64,000 bases of DNA from Acidobacteriota bacterium. GTDB taxonomy: Bacteria > Acidobacteriota > Thermoanaerobaculia > Multivoradales > J023. The notes below the pieces were generated by a model that made no database searches, had not been told where the DNA came from, and worked only from the letters and a program-made list of their open reading frames with translations. The stretch spans positions 30,437 through 94,436 of the forward strand of contig JBCDIS010000003.1 of NCBI GenBank assembly GCA_038748685.1, written 5' to 3'. This document shows, piece after piece, positions 41,379 to 58,149 of the stretch (position 1 is the first letter of the stretch; the number at the start of each line of letters is the position of its first letter). Made by a program: the position numbers and the translations under genes.

Positions 41379-41834
41379 TCACTGCGTTTGCTTTTCGATC
41401 TCGGGGGCCGCGTCGCCGGGCCGTAGCTCTCGGCGCAGCCTGGCCAGTTCCGGCTCGACCTCGCCCTCCGGCACCAGAGACCCCAGGATCCGAGCGGCCG
41501 CCGCGTCCTCCCCCAGGGCGACGTGGGCCGCGACGGCTTGGTGGGGAACGGCTGAGCGTCCCTTTCGCAGACTCGTTCCCACAACCTTGCGGAAGCTTTC
41601 GAGGGCATCGCGGTCTCGACCCGCTTCGGCGTGGGCCATCCCTAGACGGTCCCAGGCCCATTGGCTGTCCGGCAGCACCTCCGTCAGCCGGCCGAAGGCC
41701 TCCAGGGCCTGCGAGACGCGGCCTTCCCGAAGGTGCCGGGTCCCATCCCGGTTAAGGGCGGCGACGCTTTCCTGTAGGTGGGGCCGCTGCGCGGCGGGGG
41801 CCTGAGCGATGTTTAAGGTCGAGTGCCGTCTCAT
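41379..41834 (-). CDS. Short TPR-like protein whose first ~21 codons are homologous to the giant-protein N-terminus
   Basis: 151 aa. TPR-like GRVSQALEAFGRLTEVLPDSQWAWDRLGMAHAEAGRDRDALESFRKVV. Starts MRRHST like the gene at 57806. Confidence 0.65.
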   Translation of the reverse strand: MRRHSTLNIAQAPAAQRPHLQESVAALNRDGTRHLREGRVSQALEAFGRLTEVLPDSQWAWDRLGMAHAEAGRDRDALESFRKVVGTSLRKGRSAVPHQAVAAHVALGEDAAAARILGSLVPEGEVEPELARLRRELRPGDAAPEIEKQTQ

Positions 41835-41929
41835 CTGCCGTCTCCCTTGGAGCCTGTCTCGGGGATGGGCCCCAATCTAGGTTGGGGTCCATTACCTTGC
41901 AGGGCGGGACTCGGCAGAAATCTCTCTCA
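41771..41929 (-). repeat. Duplicated ~160-bp leader + 5' coding segment (paralog at 57743-57900; partial copy at 48737-48757)
   Basis: aaggtcgagtg(c/t)cgtctcatctgccgtctcc matches at 30 of 31 nt between 41815-41845 and 57787-57817. Similarity extends ~95 nt upstream and 63 nt downstream of the ATG. Confidence 0.85.
41865..41892. terminator. Hairpin downstream of partner gene 1
   Basis: atgggccccaa-tctagg-ttggggtccat (11 bp, one mismatch). No clear U-tract. Confidence 0.45.
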
Positions 41930-41954
41930 AGAGCTTCGGTCGGTTTGAGCCTCC

Positions 41955-42755
41955 CTATGCAGGGCCCCCATGTCGGACGGGGTAGACGCTAAAGAAGTAA
42001 GTCTGGAGCGTCGGGTCGTAGAAGAGCACCCACGAAGTGAGTACATCGACCGCCGACATCACCTCTCCAAGAAGCTCCCGACCCGTTCGACCTTCGCCTC
42101 CCACCTCCACGAACGTATGGTGGAAAGGTTCGATCATTACCAATCCAAGGGAGAACTCGGTCGACGAGGTCCGATTGATCGCCTTCTCGATCTCATGAAT
42201 GGTTTCCATCACGGTACGGCGGGCCCTGGGAAACTCCAACGACCGATCGAGCAAAGAGACATGCTCGATCCAGTCCCCGCGCTCGTCCCGCGCCTGCTGC
42301 GGTAGCACATGGAGCATGTCGCCATCGCGACGCAGCTCGTAGGCCACACCAGTATTACCGCGCTCGTAGACCGCCAAGAGCTCCTCGACCAGATCGAACC
42401 GGGCGCCGAACCCTCCCTCGATCCGCTGCCGCGGGTAGGAAAAACGGAGGGGCTGTACCCGGGGAATCCTCAGGGGCGGATGGAGACCTTGTGCCACCCG
42501 TTCGACCGCCCCCTGCACCCCGGCCGTCTGATCCTCGAGATCGTCGGGGTGGGACCACCGCGGATCCTCGTAGGTGATCACCCAGCCGTGTCGGTCCGAC
42601 AGATCACGCAGCGCCACCGAAAGGGGCCGCGGCTCCACAATCTCCAAGGTGATCTCGTCCTTCGCCGGCTCGGCCGCTGTGCAAGGGGAGAGGACGACGA
42701 GGCAGGTAAGAGATACGGCAAAGGCTCGAATGAAAGAGGGTTTGGATCGTCCCAT
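41955..42755 (-). CDS. Secreted partner protein 1 (paralog of 50424..51311; possibly tandem STN/N0-like domains)
   Basis: ATG 42755 with AAGGAG RBS, signal peptide. Shares EPRPL...ITYED and SW-x-LFYDP...YFF motifs with the paralog. The fold assignment is inference. Confidence 0.8.
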   Translation of the reverse strand: MGRSKPSFIRAFAVSLTCLVVLSPCTAAEPAKDEITLEIVEPRPLSVALRDLSDRHGWVITYEDPRWSHPDDLEDQTAGVQGAVERVAQGLHPPLRIPRVQPLRFSYPRQRIEGGFGARFDLVEELLAVYERGNTGVAYELRRDGDMLHVLPQQARDERGDWIEHVSLLDRSLEFPRARRTVMETIHEIEKAINRTSSTEFSLGLVMIEPFHHTFVEVGGEGRTGRELLGEVMSAVDVLTSWVLFYDPTLQTYFFSVYPVRHGGPA

Positions 42756-42812
42756 CACAGGCTCCTTGTGCTTGATGAAAACCGAGGCGACTTCGCGCTA
42801 CCCGCGCTCAAG

Positions 42813-45800
42813 TCAGTGGAGGTCCGAGCATCCGAAGTTTCCCGGATCCGCATCTTCGGTATCCCGGCAGACTTGAGTCCAACTATTGCCGCCGAGCACG
42901 ACGACTCGAATGCGAACCGGGTTGGTGCGGTACTCCACGTTGTAGATCGGAGCCGGACAGGACATGCTCATCTTTTGTCTCGCACCCAACTCACAGCCGT
43001 TGGGGTGCCTCGGGCCGTAGACCGTGTTGATCTTTCGATTGATGCCGATCTTGTCGCTCCCGTAGATGTTCGGTACACCGAAGGTGTCCTCCCTTACGGT
43101 CCAGACGCCCCCGGTCACGATGTTGTTGGCATTGAACTCCGGGATGGGTGAACCGGAGTAGTGGCAGCCGTCGTAAAAGGCGCTCCACCGTTCGCTCACC
43201 GTTCGGTTGGCGTAGATCCCATCCTCGGGAAGAACGACCGCGTTGAAGATGGCGGTGTCGACCGACGGCGACTCCCAGAGCTCGTAAAGGCTCACCTCGT
43301 CATTGGCCACGGGACAGGCGATGGCGTCCGCTGAGCAGGCGGCTCCGCTGGAGGCGGTCGCCTGCACTTGGATCGACGCGGAGTCGCGAGCGCTAGTGTT
43401 TTCCGCCAGCCGGATCTCCGCCGAATAGTCCGACAACGACACCGACTCCCCCGGACCGAGGGTGACTTCCCGACTCGCCGGCGCGAAGCTCGCGTCGGGG
43501 GTCCCACCCGTCTTGCTAAGCTCAACCGTGTAGGTGCACGACTCGGTCGATTCATTCCTGATCGTCCCGGTGAGGCCTTCCGTCGCAAAGTACGACGGGT
43601 TGGTATAAGACCGGTCCGGCTGGACCTTGACGCTCTCTAGGGTGGCTGTACAGCGGCACTCGTCTGTGCACACGGGCGTCGGCGTCGTCTTGCCCACTTC
43701 GGGCTCGAAGACGCTGAAGCTCTCCTGAAAATAGAAGCCGTCGAACGTTGTCCCGGTGGCCCGCATCTCGATCGGTTGCTCGCAGCAGTCGGTCTGGGTC
43801 ACCGTCGCGGGGGTGCGGCCTTCCACCGGCGGACCTTGGGCCACCGCTTCGGCGCAGGATCCGCCTGTGATGGTAGTGGTGGTGGTCGTTCCAGAGCTGT
43901 TGGCCGCCGACCCGGCGCCGGTGCAGTAGTTGACCTGGATCGCCACACCCGGGGATCCCGGAACTTCCGCCGCAAAGACTCCTTCGAGGCAGAAGACCGG
44001 ATACGTGAAGCCGGTGAAGAAGTCGTACCACCAGGAGATCGTCAGATCGACCCGGAGGTAGAACGACAGGACCAGACCTCCGATGGGGACTTGCTGCCCC
44101 AGGTTCAGGCCCTGGAGGATGGCGTCCCCCTCCGCGCCGGTGTCCGGGTCGAAGAGGATCCCCTCCGTATGGTGGAACTCCACGAGCTGAAAGCGGAACC
44201 GGAACAGCACCAGGGCCAGTCGCTCGGCCTCGGACAGCTCCCCACCCGATTCCAGATCGGTCGAGACGCTACCGCCGGAGAGCCGCCGAAGCATGGCCTC
44301 GTCCATCTTCTGGACCGTGTCCATCGCCTGCCGCAGCTCCGCTTCGTCCAAAGACTCGATGGCGGCCAGCGCCTCCGTTACCTCCGCGTCCGGGGGATCA
44401 TCCCCCGCAGCCAGGGCCTTGAGGCGGGCCTTCAAAGCATCCCCAGGTACCCCTGATAAAGCACCTTCGCTCGGTTCACGGATATCACCCGCCGCCACCG
44501 ACCGCATCTGCATCGGCCGGCCTTGGAGGCGGCTCGCCACCTCCCGCACCGCAGGGGCCTGGAGGTAGATAGAAGGCACCGCCGCCCCCCGCTGAGCGCC
44601 GAGGCGCTCCCGGAGACCCGCCGTGACCTCACGGCTTTCGAGGGTCGAGCGCCCCGCACCCACCACCTGAATCGGTAGCCGTATCTGCTGGCCGTTCTTG
44701 CTCACCACGATCTCCGCCGGTCCGACGCTCGACGGCGCACGGTAGCGGCCGGAAAGGCGGTCGTCCGCCGTATTCACCAGGCTCAGGATCTGCCCGCGGG
44801 TGACGCTCACCGTGGCACCTTGCAGGTTATGACCCACCACCGCCAGCAGGTAGACCTTGCCTGCTTCGGGCTGGCCCGGCGACCACAGGTCCACCAAGGG
44901 CCCCTGGGGCAGCACCCGCAGCGGCTCCGCGTCGGAGCCCTGGCTGTTCTCCGCCACCAGGTTGTGGAAGTCCTCGACGTTAGTGTCCGTAGCGTCCACT
45001 TCCACCCGCATCGACGTCCCCGCGGAATTCACGCTCAGCACCCGAGCCGTCGGGAACGACCTCGGTGCCGCACCTTCCGGCGGATCCACCTGGGCGAAGG
45101 ACACCCCCGTTCCACTGAGGTTCGTGCCGGTTACCGTCACCGTGGTCCTGCGGCCATTGGTGATCCGCTCTGGGGTGATATCCGTGATGTCAGGCTCCCC
45201 CACCACCACCGTGCTCACCGTGCCCGACAGGTTCATCAGGTACGGATTCGGCACCGCCGGATCGTTGTGCCAGATCTTCAGCACCGCCGCGAAGCTGCCC
45301 TCCGTCGACGTATCCAGCCGGGCAGCAATCGTGTCCTGCTGGCCCGGGGCCAAAGGCGAGACCAGCGTCCCAGCCCAGCTGAAGGCGTTGCCCTGGGTGT
45401 TCTGCACCTCCACGTTGGTGGGGGAATGGACCAGGACCAGGTTCCCCGCCCCCGAGGCGGCGGTGTTCTTCACCTCGATGTTCCTGCCCACCAGATTGTT
45501 GGTGCCGCTGTTTGGCTCCACCGAGCCCCAGCTCAACGACCCGTTGTGGGAGATCGGGGCGCCGGAGCCCTCGGACACCGCCATCCGCGGCGGGTCGAGG
45601 GAACCGACGGTCGCCTGGAGGTTGATCCGCAGGGGCCGCGGACGCACCGGATCGCTGTGCCATAGCCTCAGCTGGGCCTCGAAGACCCCCGCCTGGGTGG
45701 TGTCCAGCCGCACCGCGAAGGAATCCTCCTCCCCCGGCTGCAGCGGCGAGTCCAGGACGCCGACGATGCTGAACTGGGCATCCCCGACGATCTCGACATT

Positions 45801-48746
45801 GGACGGCGATCCCTCCAGCACCAGAGGCGAAGCACCCGCCGACGCGCCGTTGCGCACCGTCAGCGGCTCGTCCAGGTGAATGCCGCCGGCCCCCGGGTCC
45901 ACCGTGCCCCAATCGACCACACCGTTGTGGGGAAGCCCCGAGGCTCCGTTGCGCACCTCCAGCTTGGGCAGGGGCCGGTCGGTGGTGCTGAAGTTCAGGT
46001 CGTAGTTCTGCCAGTGCGTCTTGTTGAGGGCGAAGTCCCGAACCCAAAGGGCGATGTCGTTGGCCGGGAACTCACCGAAGCTGGCTTCGGGGCGCACCGT
46101 GAAGGTGACCGTGCGCCGATCGCCGACGAGGGACGTCGCGCAGCCCACCAGGGTCACCGTGCCCGGGTTGTGGGCGGTCGGGTGCTTCGATGCGAAGCCG
46201 CCCCCCTGGCAGGGCACCCGGTCCGCCGCCCACTGGTAGCCCAGGCTCTGGTCGCGCCAGGAGAAGTAGCCCCTGCGGTTGGCGGAGTTGCTGCCTTGGT
46301 GGTTGATCAGCGCCCGCATCTCCCGAACGCCGCTGCCGGTATCCGTCGCCGCGGCGGTGATCCCGTAGCTGGTGCCATCGCCGATGGACCAGTCCAGACC
46401 AGACACCGCCAGGGAGGTTTGCACCGGCTTCGTAGGGTCGACCCGGTACGCTCCGCTCCACGTCCCCACTCGACCGGCGCGGTCGCGGCCGCAGAGATAG
46501 AGGACGTTGTCCCCTTCGGGGGTGTCCAGGCTGTCCCCCGAAGAGAACGCCGTGCCATTGGAGCAAGAGGCGTTGGTGGGGGCGTTCCAACGGTAGCGGG
46601 CCACCGCGAGGCCCGTATTGACGCCGGCCCCCTGGCCGCCGGCGTCGTCCGCGGAGAGGGTCAGGTCCCGATCCCGGTACCAGCCGCTGGAGGCGTTGGT
46701 GGCGGAGACCCGCGGATCGTGGCGATCGATGCGCACGTAGCGCGGATCGTTCCAGGCTCCCCACGTGCCGTTGGTGTTCTTGGCGCGGAACCAGTAGGCC
46801 CGGCGGAAGCCGTCGGAGGGCAGGTTCGTGCCGCTCACCGTGTACGAGGTACCGCCGTCGAGGGTCATGTTGAACTCGCAGCCGGCGAATCCACCGGTCG
46901 AATCTTCGCTGCGACAGATCTGATACCCGTCGATGCCCGAAGGATCCGTCGCCGGGGTGACCGTGGCGACGAAGGCTCCGGTCACCCAACACTGGTCCCC
47001 CTCCACCAGGCCGCAGCTCACCGAGGTGGGTCCGGGGGCTGTGGGGCCGCCGCCGTCGACCCGGTACTGGCCGCTCCACTGCGCCACCCGGCCCACCCGA
47101 TCACGGGCGCAGAGGTAGAGCACGTTGTCCCCCTGGGGGGCCTCCAGGGTCGAGCCGGCGGAAATCTCGGAACCCTGGGAGCAGCCCGAGTTGAGGGGCG
47201 TATTCCACCGGTAGCGGACCCTCAGGAGTCCCGAATTCGCCCCCGCACCGGCGGTCGTATCCGCCGCCGAGACGATCGCCGTGCTGCTGGCGAACCAGTG
47301 GCTCGATGCCCCCGACGCCGAAACGGTGGGGGGATGGCGATCCACCCGCACGAAGCTGGCCCAATTCCACGGCCCCCACTGGCCGGCGTTGTCTCGGGCG
47401 GCCCACCAATAGGAGCGCCGGAAGCCGTCCGACGGCAGATGGCTGCCGCTCACCGTGTAGGACGTCCCCGCGTCGAGGCTCATGTTGTGCTCACAGCCGG
47501 CGAAGCCGCCGCTCGAATCCTGGCTGCGGCACAGCTTGTACGCCGCGATCCCCGAGCCCGCGTCGGTGGCCGGAGTTACGGAGGCGACGAAGCCGCCACC
47601 CACCCAGCAGCTGCCGTCGGAGCTGGTGTGGGCGCAGGGCACCGAGGTGTTGCCCGGCGCGGTGGGGGGTGTGGTGTCCACCCGATATCGGCCATTCCAA
47701 TGTTGCACACGCCCCACCCGATCCCGGGCGCACAGGTACAGGCGATGGTCCCCCTCCGGCGCCGTGAGGGTGGCGCCGGGGCTGGTGACCGTACCGCCGG
47801 TGCAGGTCGAGCCGAGGGCCGAGCCCCAGCGGTAGCGCACCTCCGCGAGACCGGAGTTGGCGGCGGCGCCGGCGGTGGCGTCGGCGGCGGAGATCACCGC
47901 CGTCGAGCTGGACACCCAGTTGGAGGACGTCCCGGAGGCCGACACCGTCGGCCCGTGGCGGTCCACCCGCACGTAGCGGGGGGAATTCCAGACCCCCCAG
48001 TTGCCGACCCTGTCCCGGGCGGCGAACCAGTAGGCGCGCCGGAATCCGTCCGACGGCAGGTGGCTCCCACCAATCGTGTAGGAGGTCCCCGCGTCGTAGC
48101 TGATGTCGTGCTCGCAGCCGGCGAAGCCGCCGGCGGAGTTGTGACTACGGCACAGCCGGTAGGAGCCGACGCCGGAGCCGGCGTCGGTGGCGGGGGTCAC
48201 GGAGACGGAGAAGCTCCCCTGGACCCAGCAGTCGCCCCCCGCGGTGTAGCTGCAGCCGACTTGCGTGGCACCGGGGGCCGTGGGCCCGCGGGTGTCGCCG
48301 TAGACATAGACTTCCGGATTCGCCCCCCAGCTGGTGCAGGCGTTGGCGCCGTCGCAGGCGCTCCAGTAGTAGGCCCTGCGCAGGCCGTCGGAGGGCACGT
48401 GGGATCCGCCAACGGTGAAGGTCGACCCGGTGTTTCCGGAGAGCATGTAGTCGCAGCCCCCCCATCCCGGGGTGTCGTTGCTGCGGCAGATCCTGAAGTG
48501 GTGCGCCCCAGGGGACGACGTCGAGATCGAAAACGACGAGCCGACCCAGCATTTTCCACCCACCACGGCGCCGCAGGACGGCGTCCCCTGGGTGGGCACC
48601 GGCGGCACCGCGGCGACGACCGGGGCCGCCATGACGAGGGCTGCGGCAACGGAGGCCGCCAGCAGAAGCAGCGCCCCCGGGAGGGCCGAGGGGCGCCTTG
48701 GCGCAGGGGGATTCGATCTCGTAGAACGCTTCGGGGGTCGTCGCAT
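42813..48746 (-). CDS. Giant secreted Cys-rich repeat protein, copy 1 (1977 aa)
   Basis: Signal peptide, 3 x ~207-aa FN3-like/Ig-like modules, an Ig-like domain, 2 choice-of-anchor-D/ASH-like domains, 2 IPT/TIG-like domains, an acidic helical linker, a beta-rich core, and a variable C-terminal domain. Confidence 0.9.
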   Translation of the reverse strand: MRRPPKRSTRSNPPAPRRPSALPGALLLLAASVAAALVMAAPVVAAVPPVPTQGTPSCGAVVGGKCWVGSSFSISTSSPGAHHFRICRSNDTPGWGGCDYMLSGNTGSTFTVGGSHVPSDGLRRAYYWSACDGANACTSWGANPEVYVYGDTRGPTAPGATQVGCSYTAGGDCWVQGSFSVSVTPATDAGSGVGSYRLCRSHNSAGGFAGCEHDISYDAGTSYTIGGSHLPSDGFRRAYWFAARDRVGNWGVWNSPRYVRVDRHGPTVSASGTSSNWVSSSTAVISAADATAGAAANSGLAEVRYRWGSALGSTCTGGTVTSPGATLTAPEGDHRLYLCARDRVGRVQHWNGRYRVDTTPPTAPGNTSVPCAHTSSDGSCWVGGGFVASVTPATDAGSGIAAYKLCRSQDSSGGFAGCEHNMSLDAGTSYTVSGSHLPSDGFRRSYWWAARDNAGQWGPWNWASFVRVDRHPPTVSASGASSHWFASSTAIVSAADTTAGAGANSGLLRVRYRWNTPLNSGCSQGSEISAGSTLEAPQGDNVLYLCARDRVGRVAQWSGQYRVDGGGPTAPGPTSVSCGLVEGDQCWVTGAFVATVTPATDPSGIDGYQICRSEDSTGGFAGCEFNMTLDGGTSYTVSGTNLPSDGFRRAYWFRAKNTNGTWGAWNDPRYVRIDRHDPRVSATNASSGWYRDRDLTLSADDAGGQGAGVNTGLAVARYRWNAPTNASCSNGTAFSSGDSLDTPEGDNVLYLCGRDRAGRVGTWSGAYRVDPTKPVQTSLAVSGLDWSIGDGTSYGITAAATDTGSGVREMRALINHQGSNSANRRGYFSWRDQSLGYQWAADRVPCQGGGFASKHPTAHNPGTVTLVGCATSLVGDRRTVTFTVRPEASFGEFPANDIALWVRDFALNKTHWQNYDLNFSTTDRPLPKLEVRNGASGLPHNGVVDWGTVDPGAGGIHLDEPLTVRNGASAGASPLVLEGSPSNVEIVGDAQFSIVGVLDSPLQPGEEDSFAVRLDTTQAGVFEAQLRLWHSDPVRPRPLRINLQATVGSLDPPRMAVSEGSGAPISHNGSLSWGSVEPNSGTNNLVGRNIEVKNTAASGAGNLVLVHSPTNVEVQNTQGNAFSWAGTLVSPLAPGQQDTIAARLDTSTEGSFAAVLKIWHNDPAVPNPYLMNLSGTVSTVVVGEPDITDITPERITNGRRTTVTVTGTNLSGTGVSFAQVDPPEGAAPRSFPTARVLSVNSAGTSMRVEVDATDTNVEDFHNLVAENSQGSDAEPLRVLPQGPLVDLWSPGQPEAGKVYLLAVVGHNLQGATVSVTRGQILSLVNTADDRLSGRYRAPSSVGPAEIVVSKNGQQIRLPIQVVGAGRSTLESREVTAGLRERLGAQRGAAVPSIYLQAPAVREVASRLQGRPMQMRSVAAGDIREPSEGALSGVPGDALKARLKALAAGDDPPDAEVTEALAAIESLDEAELRQAMDTVQKMDEAMLRRLSGGSVSTDLESGGELSEAERLALVLFRFRFQLVEFHHTEGILFDPDTGAEGDAILQGLNLGQQVPIGGLVLSFYLRVDLTISWWYDFFTGFTYPVFCLEGVFAAEVPGSPGVAIQVNYCTGAGSAANSSGTTTTTTITGGSCAEAVAQGPPVEGRTPATVTQTDCCEQPIEMRATGTTFDGFYFQESFSVFEPEVGKTTPTPVCTDECRCTATLESVKVQPDRSYTNPSYFATEGLTGTIRNESTESCTYTVELSKTGGTPDASFAPASREVTLGPGESVSLSDYSAEIRLAENTSARDSASIQVQATASSGAACSADAIACPVANDEVSLYELWESPSVDTAIFNAVVLPEDGIYANRTVSERWSAFYDGCHYSGSPIPEFNANNIVTGGVWTVREDTFGVPNIYGSDKIGINRKINTVYGPRHPNGCELGARQKMSMSCPAPIYNVEYRTNPVRIRVVVLGGNSWTQVCRDTEDADPGNFGCSDLH
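46437..48293 (-). repeat. Three tandem coding repeats of 618-621 bp in giant protein 1
   Basis: Unit boundaries at 48293, 47675, 47054 and 46436. Each unit contains CRS...GGFAGC, LPSDGFRR and C(A/G)RDRxGRV. Confidence 0.92.
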
Positions 48747-48935
48747 CTGCCGTCTCCCTGGGGCTCGGGTCGACCCCGGAGAGCTAGCTGGAGCTCACCC
48801 CGGGGCCCGGACCTAGTTTCGTTTCCCCCCTATGCGGAATCCGGCGACGGGATGTCTCATCTTTGTTCAAGATCCGGCCTGGGGACCGCGGCGCACCCCG
48901 GTGGAGCAGAGGACCGAGGCGCCTTTGGGCCAAAG

Positions 48936-48991: not shown

Positions 48992-50275
48992 CTATTGCCT
49001 GGCCATAGACCAGCGGACCCAGTCGCCGCCCTCGAAGCCGTCCTGGAAGATCATCGCGTCGCGGCCGCTGTCCTCCAGCAGGACCACCATCAGGTCGATG
49101 GCCACCGGATCGGAGGTGTCGTTGGCGTAGCCCCCGAGCCAAAGGTCACCGGTGCCGGAACGGCTGAGCCGGTACCCGGCGGTGGTCACCTCGCCGACCT
49201 GGATCGGCTCTACGACGATCGTCTGGCCGCCGGCGGTGAGGGTGAGCAGCTCGGTCTCGATCACGCGGCTGCCGGCGGCGGCGTCCAGGGTCTGCAGCAG
49301 GAGCAGGGCGCCCCCCGGCAGCTCCAGCACGTCGCGGCCGAAGGAACGCCGGTCGGCGGGGTCGTCCAGCAGCCGCCGCCAGGTCACCGCCCCGGCGGCG
49401 TCGGTGCGGAGAACGACGGTATTGTTGCAGTTCGGGAGGTCGCAGCCGGTGGCCAGGTAGCCGCCGTCGGCGAGCTGCCGCACGGAGAAGCCCTCGCGGA
49501 AACCGTCGGCCCCGTAGAGCCGATCCCACTCGGGCTGACCCTGGGCGTCGAACTTCCACAGATACGCGAAGCCGAGGCCGCCGGAAACGGTGCCGGTGGC
49601 GATGAAGCCGCCGTCGGCGGTGGCCTCCAAATTGTTGACGTAGGTGGCGACGCCGAAGCCAGGAGTGCCGAGGGTACCGAACTGCTGGAAGCTGACCTGA
49701 TCGCCGACGGCGTCGGTGATCAGCACCCAGGGCTGCTCCGGATTGGTCATCGAGTTGGCGCCGCCGATCACCGCATAGCGACCGTCGCCGAGGCGGACCG
49801 CGCGGATGAGTCCGCTATCCACCGGCAGATCGGCGGTGTAGGCGTCTTCGGAGCTCCAAACCGTGTTGCCGGCGGCGTCCAGCTCCAGCAGCCAGGGCCG
49901 GTAGTTGGGCTGGTCGGGGTCGTCGGCGCTGCCCGCCACCACCACGCCGCCCGAGGCGGTGGGCAGTACGGAGTAGAAGGTCTCCGCCAGGGGGGACAGG
50001 GAGAGGGAGCGCTCCCACACGAGCTCGCCGTCGGCGTCGGTCTTGACGACGTAGCCCTCGATCAGGAGATCGGTGTTGGTGAAGCCCACCGCAAAGGCAC
50101 CGCCGTCGACGGCGGGGGCGACGTCGAAGGCCAGGTCGGCGCCGGGGCCGCCGAAGGTCTGCGACCACGGTTGGGCCGTCGCCGGGACGGCCAGAAGAAG
50201 GGCTGCGAGGCCAAGCCCGACGAGGGCTGGGCGCGGGATCGCGGGGTTCCAGGGGGGCGAGAGGGGTCGGTACAT
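48992..50275 (-). CDS. Secreted beta-propeller-like protein with C-terminal IFxDGFExG motif
   Basis: 427 aa, AAAGGAGG RBS, signal peptide. Repeats such as DVAPAVDGGAFAVG...YVVKTDADGELVWER. Ends MIFQDGFEGGDWVRWSMARQ. Confidence 0.8.
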   Translation of the reverse strand: MYRPLSPPWNPAIPRPALVGLGLAALLLAVPATAQPWSQTFGGPGADLAFDVAPAVDGGAFAVGFTNTDLLIEGYVVKTDADGELVWERSLSLSPLAETFYSVLPTASGGVVVAGSADDPDQPNYRPWLLELDAAGNTVWSSEDAYTADLPVDSGLIRAVRLGDGRYAVIGGANSMTNPEQPWVLITDAVGDQVSFQQFGTLGTPGFGVATYVNNLEATADGGFIATGTVSGGLGFAYLWKFDAQGQPEWDRLYGADGFREGFSVRQLADGGYLATGCDLPNCNNTVVLRTDAAGAVTWRRLLDDPADRRSFGRDVLELPGGALLLLQTLDAAAGSRVIETELLTLTAGGQTIVVEPIQVGEVTTAGYRLSRSGTGDLWLGGYANDTSDPVAIDLMVVLLEDSGRDAMIFQDGFEGGDWVRWSMARQ

Positions 50276-50353
50276 GGGTTCCTCCTTTGCTCAAGGCTTC
50301 GGGGCCGTCTGGGGATTGGATGCCGCGAAACGTCCGGTTTTCGACATACCGAA

Positions 50354-50391
50354 AACCCGGGAGATCCCACGATTCGGGGTTCTCCCGGGTT
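50354..50391 (-). terminator. Rho-independent terminator after partner gene 2
   Basis: aacccgggaga...tctcccgggtt stem with an inner ccc/ggg pair, followed by tttt on the minus strand. Confidence 0.75.
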
Positions 50392-50423
50392 CAGTAAACC
50401 CGCCTATTCGTTCACCTGATGCC

Positions 50424-51311
50424 CTAGTCACCGCCCTTCAGCCGAATGCCCCCTTCTCCGGCTCCGTCGCCGGCGGTCTTCTCGAGCGGATTGACCGCCT
50501 CCACCGGACGCACCGGGGACAGGTTGAAGAAGTACCCGTCCATCGAGGGGTCGTAGAAAAGGCGCCAAGACAGGGGCAACCCTGTCGATTCCAGCGTCCG
50601 GACGAGGACATCCCTAGCGGGCTCATCGGTTGCTCCGGTCACCAGCGTCACACCGACCGCCAATCTTCGGGGAATCAGGCCGAAACTAAGTTTGGCGCCG
50701 GTCTGCTGATGCACGGCGGCCAGGGTGTCCCGGAGGGTCTCCATCACTGAGCGCTCCGCCTCGGGCAGGGTCACCGGCGTATCGAGGAGAGCACCGACCT
50801 CGCCCCAGGAGGCGTCTCGCCCCCGGGTCGAAACCGGAACCACGTGGTAAAGGTCGCCTTGCCCCTCGTAGCGGAAGCGTCCGGCGTTGCCGGCGCGGTC
50901 GTGGGACTCCAGGAGCGCCTCCAGGAGCCCCGGCACGTCGCCTGGACCCAGCGCTTCGGGGAGGTCCACCGAGAGGCTCCCCGGCCGCGGGATCATCACC
51001 CTCGGGGCGCTTCCCCGGGCGTACTGATCCAGATCCTTCCGGACGCTCTCGGTGACGTCCGCCCAATCCCCCTCAAAGGTATAGGGCGCATCCTCGTAAG
51101 TGATGACGACTCCGGTCTGTTCTTGGAGGCGGTCGATGGCCGCCGCCAGGGGTCGCGGCTCGTCTTCGATGGTGAGGGCGGCGCCCGCACTCCGTCCGGA
51201 GTCGGCGGCCGAAACGGCGGCGGAGGTCAGAAGGAGGCAGGCCGCGAGGACGATGTCCCGGGTTCGCCGGAGGAATCCAGAGGGGATTCGAGTTTCGTTG
51301 AGTATCTTCAT
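50424..51311 (-). CDS. Secreted partner protein 2 (paralog of 41955..42755)
   Basis: ATG 9 nt after the giant-gene stop, with the RBS overlapping that stop. Signal peptide, EPRPLAAAIDRL...ITYED, SWRLFYDPSMDGYFF. Confidence 0.82.
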   Translation of the reverse strand: MKILNETRIPSGFLRRTRDIVLAACLLLTSAAVSAADSGRSAGAALTIEDEPRPLAAAIDRLQEQTGVVITYEDAPYTFEGDWADVTESVRKDLDQYARGSAPRVMIPRPGSLSVDLPEALGPGDVPGLLEALLESHDRAGNAGRFRYEGQGDLYHVVPVSTRGRDASWGEVGALLDTPVTLPEAERSVMETLRDTLAAVHQQTGAKLSFGLIPRRLAVGVTLVTGATDEPARDVLVRTLESTGLPLSWRLFYDPSMDGYFFNLSPVRPVEAVNPLEKTAGDGAGEGGIRLKGGD

Positions 51312-51320
51312 CACTTGCCC

Positions 51321-54300
51321 TCAGTTGCGGGTGGGTGTCGTAACGCCGTCACGGGTGACGGCCATGCCGGAAGACCTGACGTCCATGATCACAGTGTGTC
51401 TGGTGTAGATGGGATGGCCCTCCCAAGAGCAGTTCATGCCCATGGCTTGCCGTCCCCTCACCTGGCAGGGTGCCCGACCGCGGAAAACGTAGTATTCGTC
51501 GAACTCCCGACCACCCGCCGTGCCCACCGCGCCAATCTCGTCGGGGAGGTTGAAGAGGTTGGAATCCACAATCTTCCACATCCCGCCCCGGATCCAGTTA
51601 CCGTTGTGGATCCTGTCGATGGCGGATCCCTGGAACCAGCAGCCGTCGACGACATTATCCGCGGCTTCTTCGATGTCACGACCTGTGAAGTCGGGCCCGA
51701 AGGGGGTCACCGCCATGTCGAAGACCGCCAGATCGCCGACGATCTGGGCCCAGCCCCGGAACTCCGTAATCTCATCAATGGGCAGGATGCAGGCCATCTG
51801 CTCGACGTTTCCGCCCATGGTCATGGGCGGCCCACCTCCGGTCTGCTGGGGTCTGGAGGACACCTCGAGCTTGATCTTGGCGTCGTCCCGCGCCGGGGTC
51901 GACGTCGGAACCGAAACCTTGACCCCCAGGTCCTGCTGGACACCAGGTTGTAGGGTGATCTGTCCGGAGGACGGGCTGAAGCTCAGCGTTGGGCTTCCTC
52001 CGCTCTTCGAGACCTCCCAATCGTAGATGCAGGCTTTGTTGGAGGTGTTTTTGATCGTCGCGGTCAGCGCCACGTTGCTGTCACCTGGTTTCAGGATCTT
52101 TTCTTCCTCTAGAACCACTCGACCACCGCATCCGGTGCACTGCTCCGCAGGTCTCGCCGTCCCCGCTTCGGGGTTGTTGACGTTGAAGTTCTGCTGGAAG
52201 AAGAACCCCTGGAAGGTCGTCCCCAAGGCCTGGAGGCCGATGGGCTGCTCGCAGCAGTCGTTCTGGGTCACCGTGGCGAAGCCGCGGCCGTCGATCGGCG
52301 GACCGTCGTCGGCGGCCTCGGCGCAGTCCCCACCGCCGAACGTGGTGCTCGTGGTGGTGCCGGAGCTGTTGGCGCTGCCGCCGAAGCCGGTGCAGTAGTT
52401 CACCTGGATCGCCACGCCGGGGGTGCCGGGGATCTCCGAGGCGAAGATCCCTTCCAGGCAGAAGATCGGGTACGTGAACCCGCTGGTGAAGTCGTACCAC
52501 CAGGAGATCGTCAGATCGACCCGCAGGTAGAACGACAGCACCAGACCGCCGATCCGCACCTGGTCCCCCAGGCCCAGCCCCTGGAGGATCGCATCCCCCT
52601 CGGCGCCGGTGTCCGGATCGAAGAGGATCGCCTCCGTGTGATGGAACTCCACCAGTTTCCAGCGGAACTGGAACAGGATGAAGAACGCACGCTCCACAGC
52701 CGAGAGCTCTCCGTCCTCGAGGTCCGCCGCCCGGATCGCCGCGGCGTCGAGCTTCTGGACCTGCTCCAGGGCCTCCCGGAGCTCCGACTCCTCCATCGAC
52801 TCAATCACCTGGAGCGCCTCCTGGACATCCTCCGGCGGCGGCTCTTCACCCGCCGCCAGCGCCCGGAAACGCGCCTTCAGGGAATCGCCGGGGATCAACA
52901 TCCGGGCACCCTGGCTCGGTTCCTGGATCTCCCCACCCTTGAGGGCGCTCATCTGCATCGGCTGGCCATTGAGGCGGCTCGCTGCCTCCCGCACCGAAGG
53001 CGCCTGGATGTAGACCGAGGGAACCGATGCCGCCTGCTGGGCGCCGAGGCGCTCCTTGAGGCCCGCCGTCACCTCACGGGTTTCGAGGGTCGAACGGCCC
53101 GCACCCACCACCTGGATCGGTAGACGCACCTGCTGGCCGTTCTTGGTCACCACGATCTCCGCCGGGCCCGGGGTCGACGGCGCACGGTAGCGGCCGGAGA
53201 GACGGTCGTCCGCCGTGTTCACCAGGCTCAGCATCTGACCCCGGGTCACGCTCAGGGACGCCCCCTGCAGGTTGTGACCCGCCACCGCCAGCAGGTAGAC
53301 CCTGCCGGTCTCCGGCTGACCCGGCGACCACAGGTCCACCAGCGGGCCCTGGGGCAGCACCCGAAGCGGCTCCGCGTCGGCGCCCTGGCTGTTCTCCGCC
53401 ACCAGGTTGTGGAAGTCCTCGACGTTGGTGTCGGTGGCGTCCACCTCCACCTGCATCGATGTCCCCGCAGGGTTCACGCTCAGCACCCGCGCCGTCGGGA
53501 ACGACCGCGGGGCCGCGCCCTCCGGCGGATCCATCTGGGCGAACGACACCCCCGTTCCGCCGAGGTTCGTACCCCGCACCGTCACCGTGGTCTTGCGGCC
53601 GTTGGTGATCCGCTCCGGGGTGATGTCCGTGATGTCCGGCTCCCCCCCCACCACCGTGCTCACCGTGCCCGATAGGTTCATCAGGTACGGATTCGGCACC
53701 GCCGGATCGTTGTGCCAGATCTTCAGCACCGCCGCGAAGCTGCCCTCCGTCGACGTATTCAGCCGTGCGGCGAAGTTGTCCTGCTGACCCGGGGCCAGGG
53801 GAGAAACCAGCGTCCCCGCCCAGCTGAAGGCGTTGCCCTGGGTGTTCTGCACCTCCACGTTGGTGGGGGAGTGCACCAGGACCAGGTTCCCCGCCCCTGA
53901 AGCGGCGGTGTTCTTCACCACGATGTTCTTACCCACCACGTTGTTGGTGCCGCTGTTCGGCTCCACCGAACCCCAGCTCAACGAGCCGCTATGGGAAATC
54001 GGGGGATTCGACCCGTTGCGCACCTCCAGCCGCGGCGGGTCGGTGGACTCCACCGTCGCCCTCAGGTTGATGCGCAGGGGCAGCGGACGGTTCGGGTCGC
54101 TGTGCCAGATCTGGATCTGACCGTTGAAGGTCCCCGCCTGCGCGGTGTTCAGCCGCACCACAAAGGTGTCCTGCTGACCCGGCTGCAGGGGCGAGTCCAG
54201 GGTCCCGGAGAGGCTGAACCTCGAAGAGCCCGTGATCTGGACGTTGGACGGGGTTCCCACCAGGATCAGCGGCGAGGAGCCCGCCGGCGCCGCGTTGCGC

Positions 54301-57300
54301 ACCGTCAGGGTCCTCGGCACCTGGCCGCCGCCGCCGGAACCCTGCTCCACCGTCCCCCAGTTCACATTGCCGTTGTGGGGCAGGGCGGAGCCGCCGTCGA
54401 GCACCATGAGGATCGGGTCCGGCAGGTCGACGGAGCTGAAGTTCAGGTCGTAGTTCTGCCAGTTGGTGGCGTTGAGCCGGAAGTCCCGGGTCCAGAACGA
54501 GATGTCGTTGGCCGGGTGCTCCCCGAAGCTGTTCTCCGGACGGATCGTGAAGATGACCGTCCGCTGGTTGCCGGCGAGGGACGTCGTGCAGCCGACGAGG
54601 GTCGCCGTGCCCGGGTTGAAGGCGTCCGGCCGCTTCGAGGCGAAGCCGCCCCCCTGGCAGGGCACCTGGTCCGCCGACCACAGGTAGCCGAGGCTCTGGT
54701 CCTGCCACGAGTAGTTGCCCCGCGGATTGCCGGCGTTGGAGCCCTGCAGGTTGATCAGCGCCCGCAGCTCGCGGATACCGCTGCCGGTGTCCGACGCCTT
54801 GGCGGTGATCTGGTAGGTCGATCCGTCGCCGATGGACCACTGCTGGCTCGACACCGTCAGCGAATCCCGCACCGGCTGGGTGTTGTCGACCCGGTAGTTG
54901 CCGGTCCACGTGCCCACCCGGCCCGCGCGGTCGCGGCCGCAGAGGTGGAGCACGTTGCCCCCTTCGGGCACCGTCAGGCTGTCTCCGGAGTTGAAGACGG
55001 TTCCGTTGGTGCAGGTGGCGTTGGTGGGGGCGTTCCACCGGTAGCGGGCCTCCGCCAGGCCGGTGTTGGCCCCGGCGCCGGGGCCGCCGGCGTCGTCGGC
55101 GCTCATCACCAGGGTGCGCTCGGCGAACCACTGGTCCGAGGCGTTGGTGGCCGACACCCGCGGGTTGTGGCGGTCCACCCGCACGTACCGCGGCTGGTTC
55201 CAGGGCCCCCACACGCCGTTGTTGTCCTGGGCGCGGAAGAAGTAGGAGCGGCGGAAACCGTCGCTGGGCAGGTGGCTACCGCTGATGGTGATCGAGGTGC
55301 CGCCGTTCTGGGTCACCGTCGCCTGACAGCCGGCGAAGCCGCCGGCGCTATCGTTGCTACGGCAGACGTTGTAGCCGGCGATGCCGGAGGGATCCGACGA
55401 CGGGGTCACGGTGGCGACGAAGTCCCCCGTCACCCAGCACTCGAAGGGGGGGTCGGTGGTGTACGCGCAGTTCACCGTGGTGGGGCCGGGGGCCGTCGGC
55501 GCGGCGGAATCGACCCGATACTGGCCGTTCCACTGGCCGACCCTTCCGACCCGATCCCGGCCGCACAGGTAGAGGACGTTGTCCCCCGCCGGCACGTTCA
55601 GGGTGGTGCCTGCCGTCACCGCGGTGCCGTTGGTGCAGCCGCCGTTGGTGGGGGCGTTCCACCGGTAGCGCACGTCCGCCAGGCCGGAGTTGGCCCCGGC
55701 GCCGCCGGCCGTGTCGTTAGCCTGGACGGTGGCGGTGCGCTCTTCGAACCATTCCGGCGACGCGTTGGTGGCCGACACCTGGGGATCGTGGCGGTCCACC
55801 CGCACGTACCGGGGCTGGTTCCACGGCCCCCAGGCGCCGCTGTTGTCCTGGGCACGGAAGAAGTAGGAACGGCGGAAGCCGTCGCCGGGCAAATGGCTAC
55901 CGCTGATGGTGATCGAGGTGCCGCCGCTCTGGGTCACCGTCGCCTGACAGCCGGCGAAACCGCCGGCGCTGTCGTTGCTTCGGCAGATGTTGTAGCCGGC
56001 GATGCCGGAGGGATCCGACGCCGGGGTCACGGTGGCGACGAAGTCCCCAGCCACCCAACACTCGGAGGGGATCTCGGTGGAGTACGGACAGCTCACCGTG
56101 GTGGGCCCGGGGGCCGAGGGGGGACCCGCGTCCACCCGATACTGGCCGCTCCAGGAGCCCACCCTACCGGTCCGGTCGCGGGCGCAGAGGTAGAGCACGT
56201 TGTCGCCGGCGGGGGCAGTCAGGGTCGCGCCGGAACTGGTCACCGTGCCGTTGGTGCAGGCGGCGTTGGTGGCCGCGTTCCAGCGGTATCGGATCTCCGC
56301 GAGGCCGGAGTTGGCCGCCGCCCCACCGGTGAGGTCAGCCGCCGAGACCGCGGCCGTGGCGCTTGCCACCCAATCGGCGGACGCCCCCGACGCCGACACC
56401 GTCGGCGCGTTGCGGTCCACCCGCACGTAGCGGGGCTGGTTCCAGGGCCCCCAATTGCCGGCGTTGTCCTGGGCGCGGAAGAAGTAGGAACGGCGGAAGC
56501 CGTCCGACGGCAGATGGGTACCGCTGATGGCGATCGAGGTGCCGCCATCCTGGGTCACCGTCGTGTGACAGCCGGCGAAGCCGCCGGTGGAGTCGTTGCT
56601 GCGGCACACGTTGTAGCGGGCGATCCCCGAGGCGTCCGTCGCCGGGGTCACGCTGGCGGTGAAGTTGCCCGTCACCCAGCACTCGAAGGGTGGGTCGGTG
56701 GAGTACGCGCAGGCCACCGTGGTGTTTCCCGGCGCCGACGGCGGCGCCGTGTCGACCCGATATTGGCCATTCCACTGACTCACCCGGCCTACCCGGTCGC
56801 GGGCGCACACGTAGAGGCGATTGTCCCCTTCAGGAGCGGTCAGCGTGGCGCCGGGGGTGGTGACCGTGCCGTTGGTGCAGGCGCCGTTCAATGCGGCGTT
56901 CCAACGGTAGCGCACCTCCGCGAGGCCCGAATTGGCCGCCCCGCCGCCTGTGGTGTCGGCCGCGGCGATGGTCGCCGTCGCGCCGCCGGTCCACGTCGCG
57001 GACGCCCCCGACGCCGACGCCGTCGGCGCGTAGCGGTCCACCTGGACGTACTTCGGCGAGTTCCAGGGGCCCCAGTTGCCCACCCGATCCTGGGCCCGGA
57101 ACCAGTAGGCGCGGCGGAAGCCGTCGGACGGCAGGTTCGAGCCGCTCACGGTGAACGACGTGCCGCCGGTGAGGGTCATGTTGGTCTCGCAGCCGGCGAA
57201 GCCGCCGCTGGAGTTGTTGCTGCGGCAGATGTGGTAGCCGTCGACCCCGGACAGGGCGTCTACGGCCGCGTTGACGGAGACGGTGAAGTTCCCCTGAACC

Positions 57301-57806
57301 CAGCAGGTACCCCCCGCGGTGTAGCTACAGGCCACCTGGGTGTTGCCCGGCGCCGACGGTCCGCTGGCGTCACGGTAGACGTAGACCTCGGGGTTGTCGG
57401 CCCAGCCGGTGCAGGCGTTGGCGCTGTCGCAGGCGCTCCAATAGTAGGCCCGGCGGAAGCCGTCGGACGGCAGATTGGAGCCGCTCACGGTGTAGGTGGA
57501 ACCGGTGTTGCTCGACATCACCGTGTCGCAGCCCCCCCAGCCGGCGACGTCGTTGCTGCGGCAGATCTTGAAATGGTGGGCCCCAGGGGAGGAGGTGGAG
57601 ATGGAGAAATTGGAGCCGACGTAGCACTTGCCGCCGACCACGGCGCCGCAGGCGGGCGATCCCTGGGTGGGCACCGGAGGCACCGCCGCCGCCGCGGGCA
57701 GGGCCCAGAGGAAGAGCGCCAGGCTTGCGAAAAGCAGCCCGACCCGCAGGTGGGGCCACTGTGGAGCAAAGGGAAAAGCGGTGTCGAAGGTCGAGTGTCG
57801 TCTCAT
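51321..57806 (-). CDS. Giant secreted Cys-rich repeat protein, copy 2 (2161 aa)
   Basis: Start MRRHSTF at 57806 with GGAG RBS. Same domain order as copy 1 but 4 modules. Mature N-terminus nearly the same (VPPVPTQG.P.CGAVVGGKC). Confidence 0.9.
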   Translation of the reverse strand: MRRHSTFDTAFPFAPQWPHLRVGLLFASLALFLWALPAAAAVPPVPTQGSPACGAVVGGKCYVGSNFSISTSSPGAHHFKICRSNDVAGWGGCDTVMSSNTGSTYTVSGSNLPSDGFRRAYYWSACDSANACTGWADNPEVYVYRDASGPSAPGNTQVACSYTAGGTCWVQGNFTVSVNAAVDALSGVDGYHICRSNNSSGGFAGCETNMTLTGGTSFTVSGSNLPSDGFRRAYWFRAQDRVGNWGPWNSPKYVQVDRYAPTASASGASATWTGGATATIAAADTTGGGAANSGLAEVRYRWNAALNGACTNGTVTTPGATLTAPEGDNRLYVCARDRVGRVSQWNGQYRVDTAPPSAPGNTTVACAYSTDPPFECWVTGNFTASVTPATDASGIARYNVCRSNDSTGGFAGCHTTVTQDGGTSIAISGTHLPSDGFRRSYFFRAQDNAGNWGPWNQPRYVRVDRNAPTVSASGASADWVASATAAVSAADLTGGAAANSGLAEIRYRWNAATNAACTNGTVTSSGATLTAPAGDNVLYLCARDRTGRVGSWSGQYRVDAGPPSAPGPTTVSCPYSTEIPSECWVAGDFVATVTPASDPSGIAGYNICRSNDSAGGFAGCQATVTQSGGTSITISGSHLPGDGFRRSYFFRAQDNSGAWGPWNQPRYVRVDRHDPQVSATNASPEWFEERTATVQANDTAGGAGANSGLADVRYRWNAPTNGGCTNGTAVTAGTTLNVPAGDNVLYLCGRDRVGRVGQWNGQYRVDSAAPTAPGPTTVNCAYTTDPPFECWVTGDFVATVTPSSDPSGIAGYNVCRSNDSAGGFAGCQATVTQNGGTSITISGSHLPSDGFRRSYFFRAQDNNGVWGPWNQPRYVRVDRHNPRVSATNASDQWFAERTLVMSADDAGGPGAGANTGLAEARYRWNAPTNATCTNGTVFNSGDSLTVPEGGNVLHLCGRDRAGRVGTWTGNYRVDNTQPVRDSLTVSSQQWSIGDGSTYQITAKASDTGSGIRELRALINLQGSNAGNPRGNYSWQDQSLGYLWSADQVPCQGGGFASKRPDAFNPGTATLVGCTTSLAGNQRTVIFTIRPENSFGEHPANDISFWTRDFRLNATNWQNYDLNFSSVDLPDPILMVLDGGSALPHNGNVNWGTVEQGSGGGGQVPRTLTVRNAAPAGSSPLILVGTPSNVQITGSSRFSLSGTLDSPLQPGQQDTFVVRLNTAQAGTFNGQIQIWHSDPNRPLPLRINLRATVESTDPPRLEVRNGSNPPISHSGSLSWGSVEPNSGTNNVVGKNIVVKNTAASGAGNLVLVHSPTNVEVQNTQGNAFSWAGTLVSPLAPGQQDNFAARLNTSTEGSFAAVLKIWHNDPAVPNPYLMNLSGTVSTVVGGEPDITDITPERITNGRKTTVTVRGTNLGGTGVSFAQMDPPEGAAPRSFPTARVLSVNPAGTSMQVEVDATDTNVEDFHNLVAENSQGADAEPLRVLPQGPLVDLWSPGQPETGRVYLLAVAGHNLQGASLSVTRGQMLSLVNTADDRLSGRYRAPSTPGPAEIVVTKNGQQVRLPIQVVGAGRSTLETREVTAGLKERLGAQQAASVPSVYIQAPSVREAASRLNGQPMQMSALKGGEIQEPSQGARMLIPGDSLKARFRALAAGEEPPPEDVQEALQVIESMEESELREALEQVQKLDAAAIRAADLEDGELSAVERAFFILFQFRWKLVEFHHTEAILFDPDTGAEGDAILQGLGLGDQVRIGGLVLSFYLRVDLTISWWYDFTSGFTYPIFCLEGIFASEIPGTPGVAIQVNYCTGFGGSANSSGTTTSTTFGGGDCAEAADDGPPIDGRGFATVTQNDCCEQPIGLQALGTTFQGFFFQQNFNVNNPEAGTARPAEQCTGCGGRVVLEEEKILKPGDSNVALTATIKNTSNKACIYDWEVSKSGGSPTLSFSPSSGQITLQPGVQQDLGVKVSVPTSTPARDDAKIKLEVSSRPQQTGGGPPMTMGGNVEQMACILPIDEITEFRGWAQIVGDLAVFDMAVTPFGPDFTGRDIEEAADNVVDGCWFQGSAIDRIHNGNWIRGGMWKIVDSNLFNLPDEIGAVGTAGGREFDEYYVFRGRAPCQVRGRQAMGMNCSWEGHPIYTRHTVIMDVRSSGMAVTRDGVTTPTRN
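54885..57368 (-). repeat. Four tandem coding repeats of 618-624 bp in giant protein 2
   Basis: Unit boundaries at 57368, 56750, 56129, 55508 and 54884. Confidence 0.92.
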
Positions 57807-58149
57807 CTGCCGTCTCCATTGGGAGCGTGTCTTTGGGTCGCTTGGAAGCTCGGGAGGTTCTCTTATTTTCAAAGGCGGGATTCGGTGGGAATCTTTCTCA
57901 TGGAGCTCAGGCTGCTCCGGACAACGGGGAACCGCCGAAGCCCGTCGAAGCTGAGATCACCGCCTCCACGACGGAGTGCGGAGCCCTCGGGTGGGGCGCC
58001 ATCCCTACACGCGAAAAGCGGGCCCAAGGTCTCCAGACGCCGTCCCGATCGCCGCAGGGACGGACCCAGGGCACCGGGACAGAATCGAGCCGGGGCCGGG
58101 CACAGGACCTGGATGCGGCCGCCGATCACCTCGGGTAAGATCGGCCACC

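Follow-up and report, generated by a model that had tools for sequence, protein, structure and literature searches.

Effectors that type VI secretion systems (T6SSs) send to the periplasm have periplasmic immunity proteins, as with Tse1/Tsi1 and Tge/Tgi, and allele-specific self-recognition, in which variable regions define strain identity, is known for IdsD-IdsE of Proteus and TraA of Myxococcus. In the Sec-dependent surface class of polymorphic toxins (Zhang et al. 2012, PMC3482391), large, multi-repeat secreted proteins vary at their extreme C-terminus, the region before the junction is conserved, a cognate gene lies directly downstream, and one C-terminal domain is found on different scaffolds; orphan partner genes elsewhere and strain-level variation also belong to the picture. 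In the toxins of extracellular contractile injection systems (eCISs; Geller et al. 2021, PMC8213781), a DUF4157 N-terminus is combined with a C-terminal toxin, DUF4157 being the domain that an earlier paper (PMC3482391) lists among polymorphic toxins as the PVC-metallopeptidase. Herein, we describe a two-gene module that occurs twice in a 64-kb stretch of contig JBCDIS010000003.1, a marine metagenome contig of an uncultured marine bacterium (this whole stretch is called the window below). In each copy, a giant gene (A or B) consists of a long repetitive stalk followed by an immunoglobulin (Ig)-like domain and a terminal "tip" domain, and a partner gene lies directly downstream; the two copies of Ig-like domain, tip and partner are referred to as cassette 1 (giant A) and cassette 2 (giant B).

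The module is like the surface-class polymorphic toxins in all of the features listed above. It is unlike them in that tip and partner lie outside the catalogued Tox/Ntox/Imm families, and it stands out within this kind of system by its giant carriers with Ig repeats, a two-lobed partner that is secreted, and deployment by both the Sec and the eCIS route. The T6SS pairs are similar in that a predicted envelope effector is paired with an adjacent signal-peptide-bearing neutraliser, whereas no T6SS genes or marker domains are present here and fold and family are unrelated. With IdsD-IdsE and TraA the module shares co-varying allele-specific partners, and there is no sequence or domain relationship. 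Marks of contact-dependent inhibition (TPS domain, filamentous haemagglutinin repeats, VENN-type motif, CdiB) were absent from Pfam scans of A and B, the neighbours of which are BamB-like and arginase-family genes. No description of the tip family, the partner family or their pairing was found in the papers searched, Pfam, NCBIfam or PDB.

To define the linkage between tip and partner, one genome per species was scanned with tip motifs only, which gave 18 loci from Planctomycetota, Acidobacteriota, Geodermatophilus (Actinomycetota) and one Rariloculaceae metagenome-assembled genome (MAG). In 17 of the 18, a partner homolog (E 1e-48 to 1e-89) was located directly downstream on the same strand. 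The spacing between tip and partner was 6-57 nt, and loci L008 and L011, reached from the partner side, had a tip-ending gene directly upstream. The exception (L021, 5767-6453) encodes a 228-aa Rariloculaceae protein with a TTG start and no obvious signal peptide, and may be a stand-alone or decaying tip gene. There was no third conserved gene with the module across the loci compared. Tip and partner distances were correlated over 20 pairs (r = 0.58, reached by one of 2000 Mantel permutations), a correlation to which shared species history contributes. Two natural fusions (P0055 and P0065) have the partner domain at the N-terminus, the tip at the C-terminus and a lipoprotein-like signal; at one fusion locus (L032:1414-2706), an unannotated 373-aa gene lies 15 nt upstream. 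We consider it very probable that tip and partner form a co-inherited, exchangeable and specifically interacting module.

Within the window, the boundary of the module is sharp. In 60-residue windows, the stalks of A and B shared 60-95% identity, which fell to 18-38% beyond about residue 1690 of A and 1910 of B, a drop far beyond chance. Nucleotide homology between the two genes ended at 43685 and 52154, approximately 28 codons past the motif DCCEQPI. An earlier note, made from the sequence alone, had described the paralogs as highly similar up to this motif and divergent thereafter, and its breakpoints (43700 and 52170) agree with ours. The Cys frame that it had read in the tips (AC..P..DE, DGC[HW][YF].GS, GG.W and C....RQ.M.M.C) consists of identical columns throughout, which are also invariant family-wide. 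The two partners are homologs, as it had said (31% identity, E 7e-37), and its caveat was correct that members of the same family on both sides mean allelic diversification.

Neighbor-joining trees with bootstraps gave different histories for stalk and module. The stalk ends of A and B were sisters in 100% of bootstraps (distance 0.30), whereas the tip domains were sisters in 0 of 100 (distance 1.65), and the smallest clade with both held about 27 of 133 sequences; the tip and stalk phylogenies are not congruent. The partners were sisters in 11 of 200 bootstraps, and 30 other partners were closer to partner B than partner A was. The synonymous divergence (dS) between A and B was 0.27-0.9 along the stalk, and from > 1.1 to saturated in the tip. 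Because tip dS is saturated, the excess divergence of the tip is not merely faster amino-acid change.

Two histories of A and B fit these data, namely import of the module, or its long exclusion from a gene conversion that homogenises the stalks. According to the latter, no exchange took place in this genome: A and B would be old tandem duplicates, tips and partners would show their true age, and gene conversion would have homogenised the stalks up to the junction. Consistent with this history, stalk dS is a mosaic (0.27 in A 1100-1350, up to 0.9 elsewhere), and the internal repeats and the difference in repeat number mark an actively recombining stalk. The deeper nodes of the stalk-end tree also fail to resolve, their support (~20%) being too low to show repeated switching between C-terminal classes. 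However, gene conversion leaves unexplained why A and B each have a tip and a partner nearer to those of unrelated carriers or phyla than to those of the other, as well as the divergent tract between strains described below. We regard it as possible and somewhat unlikely; it concerns history only, is compatible with any functional reading, and keeps stalk and module as separate evolutionary units.

The tract was found at cassette 2 in two strain-level comparisons. The first used a 2-kb contig of a related MAG (L033), syntenic over tip B, partner B and the BamB-like gene. Relative to the window, dS was 0.056 in the BamB-like gene; partner B was identical over codons 181-295 and had a dS of 0.22-0.32 over codons 1-150, and tip B had a dS of 0.32 with a peak of 0.62 (dN/dS 0.13-0.30). 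The second used Logan contigs of another sequencing run, which were argued to be one genome because their depths were similar (8-11). Their nucleotide divergence from the window was 1.2% at 50300-50625, 9.3% at 50788-51797, 5.8% at 52015-52517 and 2.5% at 52494-53255, and the interval 51797-52015 was unalignable at 80%, while cassette 1 in that run diverged by just 0.8-1.5%. The cassette-2 tract bears the signature of a recombined stretch that would reach from the junction across the Ig-like domain and the tip into the partner gene, of which it takes in the 5' half. The proposal of the earlier note that tip and partner behave as an exchangeable unit is thus supported by the discordant trees, the saturated tip dS, the partner linkage and this tract. 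In run X3, the sole contig over partner A was ~10% divergent (41700-42124) and nothing aligned at 80% over 42124-43400; in the X3 strain, for which depth was low (~6), a replacement of cassette 1 is possible as well.

The drop in GC content of tips and partners proved real and less deep than the 55-60% first proposed would imply. GC was 61.8% in tip A, 61.6% in tip B, 62.0% in partner A and 67.2% in partner B, compared to 69.3-69.6% in the stalks, and values of 57-60% were reached only as local minima of 300-nt windows. The GC content at third codon positions (GC3) was 0.73-0.80 in tips and partners and 0.87-0.91 in the stalks, and as GC3 falls too, amino-acid composition alone does not account for the drop. 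The cassette GC3 values lie in the lower quartile of the genes in the window (mean 0.83, sd 0.06) and are no outliers. Taken alone, the GC signal is unconvincing.

The junction itself was then followed outside the window. A stalk-end module of ~190 residues ending in DCCEQPI occurs in about a dozen other giants. In P0096, P0122, P0163, P0171 and both giants of locus L031, the same junction leads to another Ig-type domain, an unrelated Cys-rich domain and a HEAT-like tail. The L031 giants (1619 and 1616 aa; L031:2800-12851, MAG GCA_039028635.1) stand in tandem with no partner gene after them. As giants with the same stalk end and another C-terminus have no partner gene, the partner goes with the tip and not with the stalk. 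The fused HEAT-like tail of this class could be a built-in counterpart of the partner. A scan of genome contigs with a four-sequence junction alignment gave no relative, and when metagenomes were scanned with the junction, the one locus recovered was short and uninformative on tips. The string FDPDTGAEGD in the stalk end was considered as a retropepsin-type DTG self-cleavage site and rejected, the Asp being Q, I, L or V in homologs.

A word-index protein search with tip A returned nothing, not even tip A itself, and an exhaustive profile search was needed. With a two-tip profile run against 1.84 billion representative proteins (E <= 0.001), 183 tip-family proteins were obtained (cluster representatives at 50% identity), sparse and widespread over Acidobacteriota, Planctomycetota, Actinomycetota and marine uncultured lineages. 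Conservation covers the final ~150 residues, which end 0-5 residues from the C-terminus in nearly all of the 141 matched proteins. The regions ahead of it range from 0 to ~1800 aa and belong to very varied carriers, including Ig, PKD, TIG, Big_2 and dockerin arrays and one eCIS_core (DUF4157) effector; an Ig-like domain often accompanies the tip in other proteins too. At ~25% overall identity, D54, C56, D93, C113 and Q119 (numbered by the tip A domain) were invariant in 133 of 133 tips, and E12 and E47 in 132, which suggests an active or ligand-binding site. A second Cys pair (positions 6 and 125) was jointly present in 108 sequences and jointly absent in 16, a covariation suggestive of a dispensable disulfide. 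A Pfam scan of 39 tip domains (E <= 1) gave nothing beyond single-sequence noise, the tip matched nothing in NCBIfam or among PDB sequences, and plasmids searched by tblastn with tip and partner yielded no match. The AlphaFold2 model of the tip, built from 39 sequences, is mostly beta (predicted local distance difference test, pLDDT, 90.7). On account of the choice-of-anchor hits in the giants, a sorting signal of the type IX secretion system (T9SS), PEP-CTERM or LPXTG-like kind was considered for the tip. This reading was rejected: the tips had no match to a Pfam or NCBIfam sorting domain, and every one of them comes with a partner gene of its own, where a sortase-type machinery would be common to all.

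The partner profile search gave 21 proteins, all of ~250 aa. Nearly all combine a hydrophobic signal segment at the N-terminus with an invariant RP...ITYEDP motif and a second, similar one (LSW.LFYDP), and most have no membrane anchor. Partner A consists of a signal peptide and two alpha/beta lobes and carries both motifs. The partner model (pLDDT 89.4) had no match in PDB at E <= 0.001, and the partner had no Pfam hit; its best Foldseek matches, all weak, were DotD (E 0.045, probability 0.97, template modelling score 0.4-0.5 on target), secretin N0 and the phage Mu gp44 baseplate hub. Of the partner homologs without an upstream tip gene (P0008, P0009 and P0011; L005:9554-11028 and L010:3561-5033), some are extended by ~230 aa that resemble the partner's own repeat motif.

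One of the ~140 tip proteins examined is an eCIS member. In Geodermatophilus aquaeductus (L018), the tip protein is composed of eCIS_core (DUF4157, E 6e-27), PG_binding_1 (E 6e-8) and the tip, and is followed by the partner; within 6 kb there are three more DUF4157 genes, a DUF6519 gene and an AAA ATPase. The four DUF4157 genes of this region (L018:194-12428) have different C-termini, namely an unknown one, the tip, another unknown one and Peptidase_M15_4; the ATPase combines AAA and WHD, and a partner is present after the tip gene only. This protein is like the eCIS toxins in its DUF4157 cluster with an AAA ATPase, DUF6519 and a sibling with a peptidoglycan peptidase domain, whereas A and B are Sec-dependent giants with no eCIS_core hit and no eCIS genes nearby. 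Signal peptides are absent from both the L018 tip protein and its partner and are present on both proteins of the Sec-dependent versions. As the two signal peptides are present or absent together, the partner is always in the compartment of the tip in the producer.

An effector and its inhibitor would fit a domain that sits at the C-terminus behind a junction, has polar and Cys residues that do not vary, and is matched one-to-one by a gene downstream, and a polymorphic-toxin reading gains independent support because the tip holds the toxin position in an eCIS effector. On this analysis, we lean with modest confidence towards tip and partner being a new putative effector-immunity pair of the polymorphic-toxin type. 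The PG_binding_1 neighbor and the secreted partners hint at a target for the tip in the cell envelope. The two-gene module (41955-43685; counterpart 50424-52154) comprises an Ig-like domain and tip at the 3' end of the giant gene and a cognate partner of ~250 residues, which would bind its own tip specifically. The tip would be the effector, probably an envelope-acting enzyme and possibly acting on peptidoglycan, and the partner would be its immunity protein or inhibitor, placed in the tip's compartment (Sec-exported here, in the cytoplasm for the eCIS version). The stalk-end module, with DCCEQPI at its end, may serve as a recombination handle, like a pre-toxin domain, at which new tip-partner alleles would be grafted via homologous recombination, and strains, as well as two paralogs in one genome, would end up with different specificities.

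The carriers and the partner fold also bear on a non-toxic lock-and-key, in which an adhesin stalk bears the tip at its far end for docking or recognition and the partner is the socket made for it. Such a pair would serve in surface anchoring, in assembling a binding head of two chains or in recognising kin, and which cells adhere to each other would depend on their alleles. By far the most carriers are of the adhesin kind (Ig, PKD, TIG, dockerin and choice-of-anchor D), the natural partner-tip fusions suggest that the complex is the working unit, and the tip is beta-rich with a covarying Cys pair and no enzyme-like fold match. The partner lobes, weakly like DotD, secretin N0 and the phage baseplate hub, resemble protein-protein interaction domains. 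However, the eCIS context, with a peptidoglycan-binding domain and a cytoplasmic pair, fits surface docking poorly, a diversifying interface would not be expected to keep acidic, Cys and Gln residues fully invariant across phyla, and most partners have no membrane anchor. We regard this lock-and-key as unlikely. It is likewise doubtful that the pair is a portable allele-specific device of this kind, used by bacteria of several phyla on surface fibres or lipoproteins (for kin discrimination or cell coupling), or else that the tip is a first-of-its-kind envelope enzyme fold with a Cys/Asp/Glu/Gln centre that is delivered by fibre and by injection.

The shared compartment of tip and partner would equally be expected if the partner were a dedicated chaperone, pro-domain-like foldase or export pilot for a disulfide-containing tip, needed during biogenesis only. 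The one-to-one adjacency at 6-57 nt, the N-terminal place of the partner in the fusions, as for a pro-domain, and the weak resemblance to a DotD/pilotin-like fold are in agreement with such a role. A chaperone, though, has no need to diversify with its client or to form a hot spot of strain-level divergence, and tip-less partners occur, as orphan immunity genes do. Further, the eCIS version of the tip lacks the covarying Cys pair and has still kept its partner. A biogenesis factor is thus very unlikely in our judgement.

The effector-immunity reading, with exchange of the module at its base, has to be weighed against a number of observations that speak the other way. On the side of function, no Pfam or NCBIfam toxin family matched the tip, and its model had no fold match in PDB and BFVD (E <= 0.001). 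Among ~120 carriers scanned, adhesin-type domains alone were found and, bar the single eCIS case, no recognised toxin-trafficking domain. The partner has ~250 aa and two lobes and is secreted, whereas most immunity proteins described are small and cytoplasmic (PMC3482391); it exceeds their usual size. A fusion of partner and tip is unusual for a toxin and its antidote, and a pro-domain-like inhibitor would fit it. Partner homologs with no upstream tip gene occur at L001, L005 and L010, and those of L005 and L010 could be orphan or multi-module partners. On the side of exchange, only two C-terminal classes follow the junction, unlike the zoo of unrelated toxins, and no standalone cassettes were found in the window: tblastn with tips and partners across the 64 kb gave just the two known copies of each, so the orphan tip-partner cassettes that the earlier note had considered did not appear. 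Tip distances are near saturation and the topology of the tip tree is weakly resolved. The dN/dS between strain alleles was < 0.3, with no signal of positive selection. One breakpoint of the cassette-2 tract, the one strain-level tract visible, lies near codon 160-180 of partner B, which is inside the gene and not at the cassette edge. Metagenome contigs may also be chimeric, although two independent assemblies agree.

The features of the locus are collected in Table 1. On the minus strand, the order is giant B, partner B, a BamB/PQQ-like beta-propeller gene, giant A, partner A and an arginase-family gene. As genes for a TonB-dependent receptor and TolC-like and AcrB-like proteins are nearby, the organism is Gram-negative. 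Both giants have a signal-peptide-like N-terminus, followed by repeat modules of ~210 aa (four in A, five in B), choice-of-anchor-D/HYDIN-type Ig domains and IPT/TIG-like domains; A then ends with the stalk-end module, the Ig-like domain and the tip. The extra repeat module of B (~225 aa, 55713-56390, B aa 495-720) makes the stalks of A and B unequal in length. Repeat copies are joined in several Logan contigs, which hints at repeat-number variation or assembly collapse. The TTG start listed for gene B (57872) is probably wrong, and ATG 57806 is favored because its ribosome-binding site and first codons match those of gene A. The BamB/PQQ-like gene is syntenic in the related MAG (L033:1523-2001) and elsewhere is not conserved beside tip-partner modules. 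Two 427-aa open reading frames (ORFs) adjoining the cassettes were considered as paralogs and rejected, one being arginase-family and the other the BamB-like propeller. Just downstream of partner A there is a copy of the gene B 5' leader with the ribosome-binding site GGGAGACGGCAG, an ATG and the first codons of gene B (MRRHST...); it is the start of an ORF of 151 aa (41379-41834) that is not related to the giants. This copy looks like the edge of a duplicated unit, what is left of the 5' end of a third tandem unit, or a leader put to use again. Around both partner genes, scans for promoters and terminators gave nothing above shuffled expectation.

Table 1. Coordinates of the two giant-plus-partner units and associated features in the window
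Feature	Position	Strand	Remarks
Giant paralog A	42813..48746	-	1977 aa
Stalk-end ("pre-tip") module of A	43770..44213	-	aa 1512-1659; ends in DCCEQPI (43770-43790)
Ig-like domain, cassette 1	43332..43670	-	A aa 1693-1805; 30-38% identity to B counterpart
Terminal tip domain of A	42816..43331	-	aa 1806-1977; unannotated all-beta family
Partner A	41955..42758	-	267 aa, probable ATG 42755; begins 54 nt past A stop
Giant paralog B	51321..57872	-	2183 aa as listed
Stalk-end module of B	52239..52682	-	DCCEQPI at 52239-52259
Ig-like domain, cassette 2	51804..52139	-	B aa 1912-2023
Terminal tip domain of B	51324..51803	-	aa 2024-2183
Partner B	50424..51314	-	296 aa, signal peptide; begins 6-9 nt past B stop
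Hyper-divergent tract between close strains	50790..52520	.	5' half of partner B, tip B, Ig-like domain, to junction
BamB/PQQ-like beta-propeller gene	48992-50275	-	between the two giant-plus-partner units
Copy of gene B 5' leader	41776..41859	-	~85 nt; original 57748-57832, also 48746-48800; just downstream of partner A

For annotation, a gene with RP...ITYEDP right after a gene ending in D.C[WY]F.GS ... GG.W ... PC.....Q.M.I.C can be taken as the module, and Geodermatophilus aquaeductus DSM 46834 is a cultured carrier of the pair. To our knowledge, few antagonism systems have been characterised in the groups that carry the tip (Acidobacteriota, Planctomycetota, Actinomycetota and marine uncultured lineages). 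If the effector-immunity reading is true, the module would define an effector domain and an immunity family that are both new, and the stalk-end module ending in DCCEQPI would be a recognisable junction for the exchange of C-termini. One cargo domain would then link giant Ig-repeat surface fibres and contractile injection particles.

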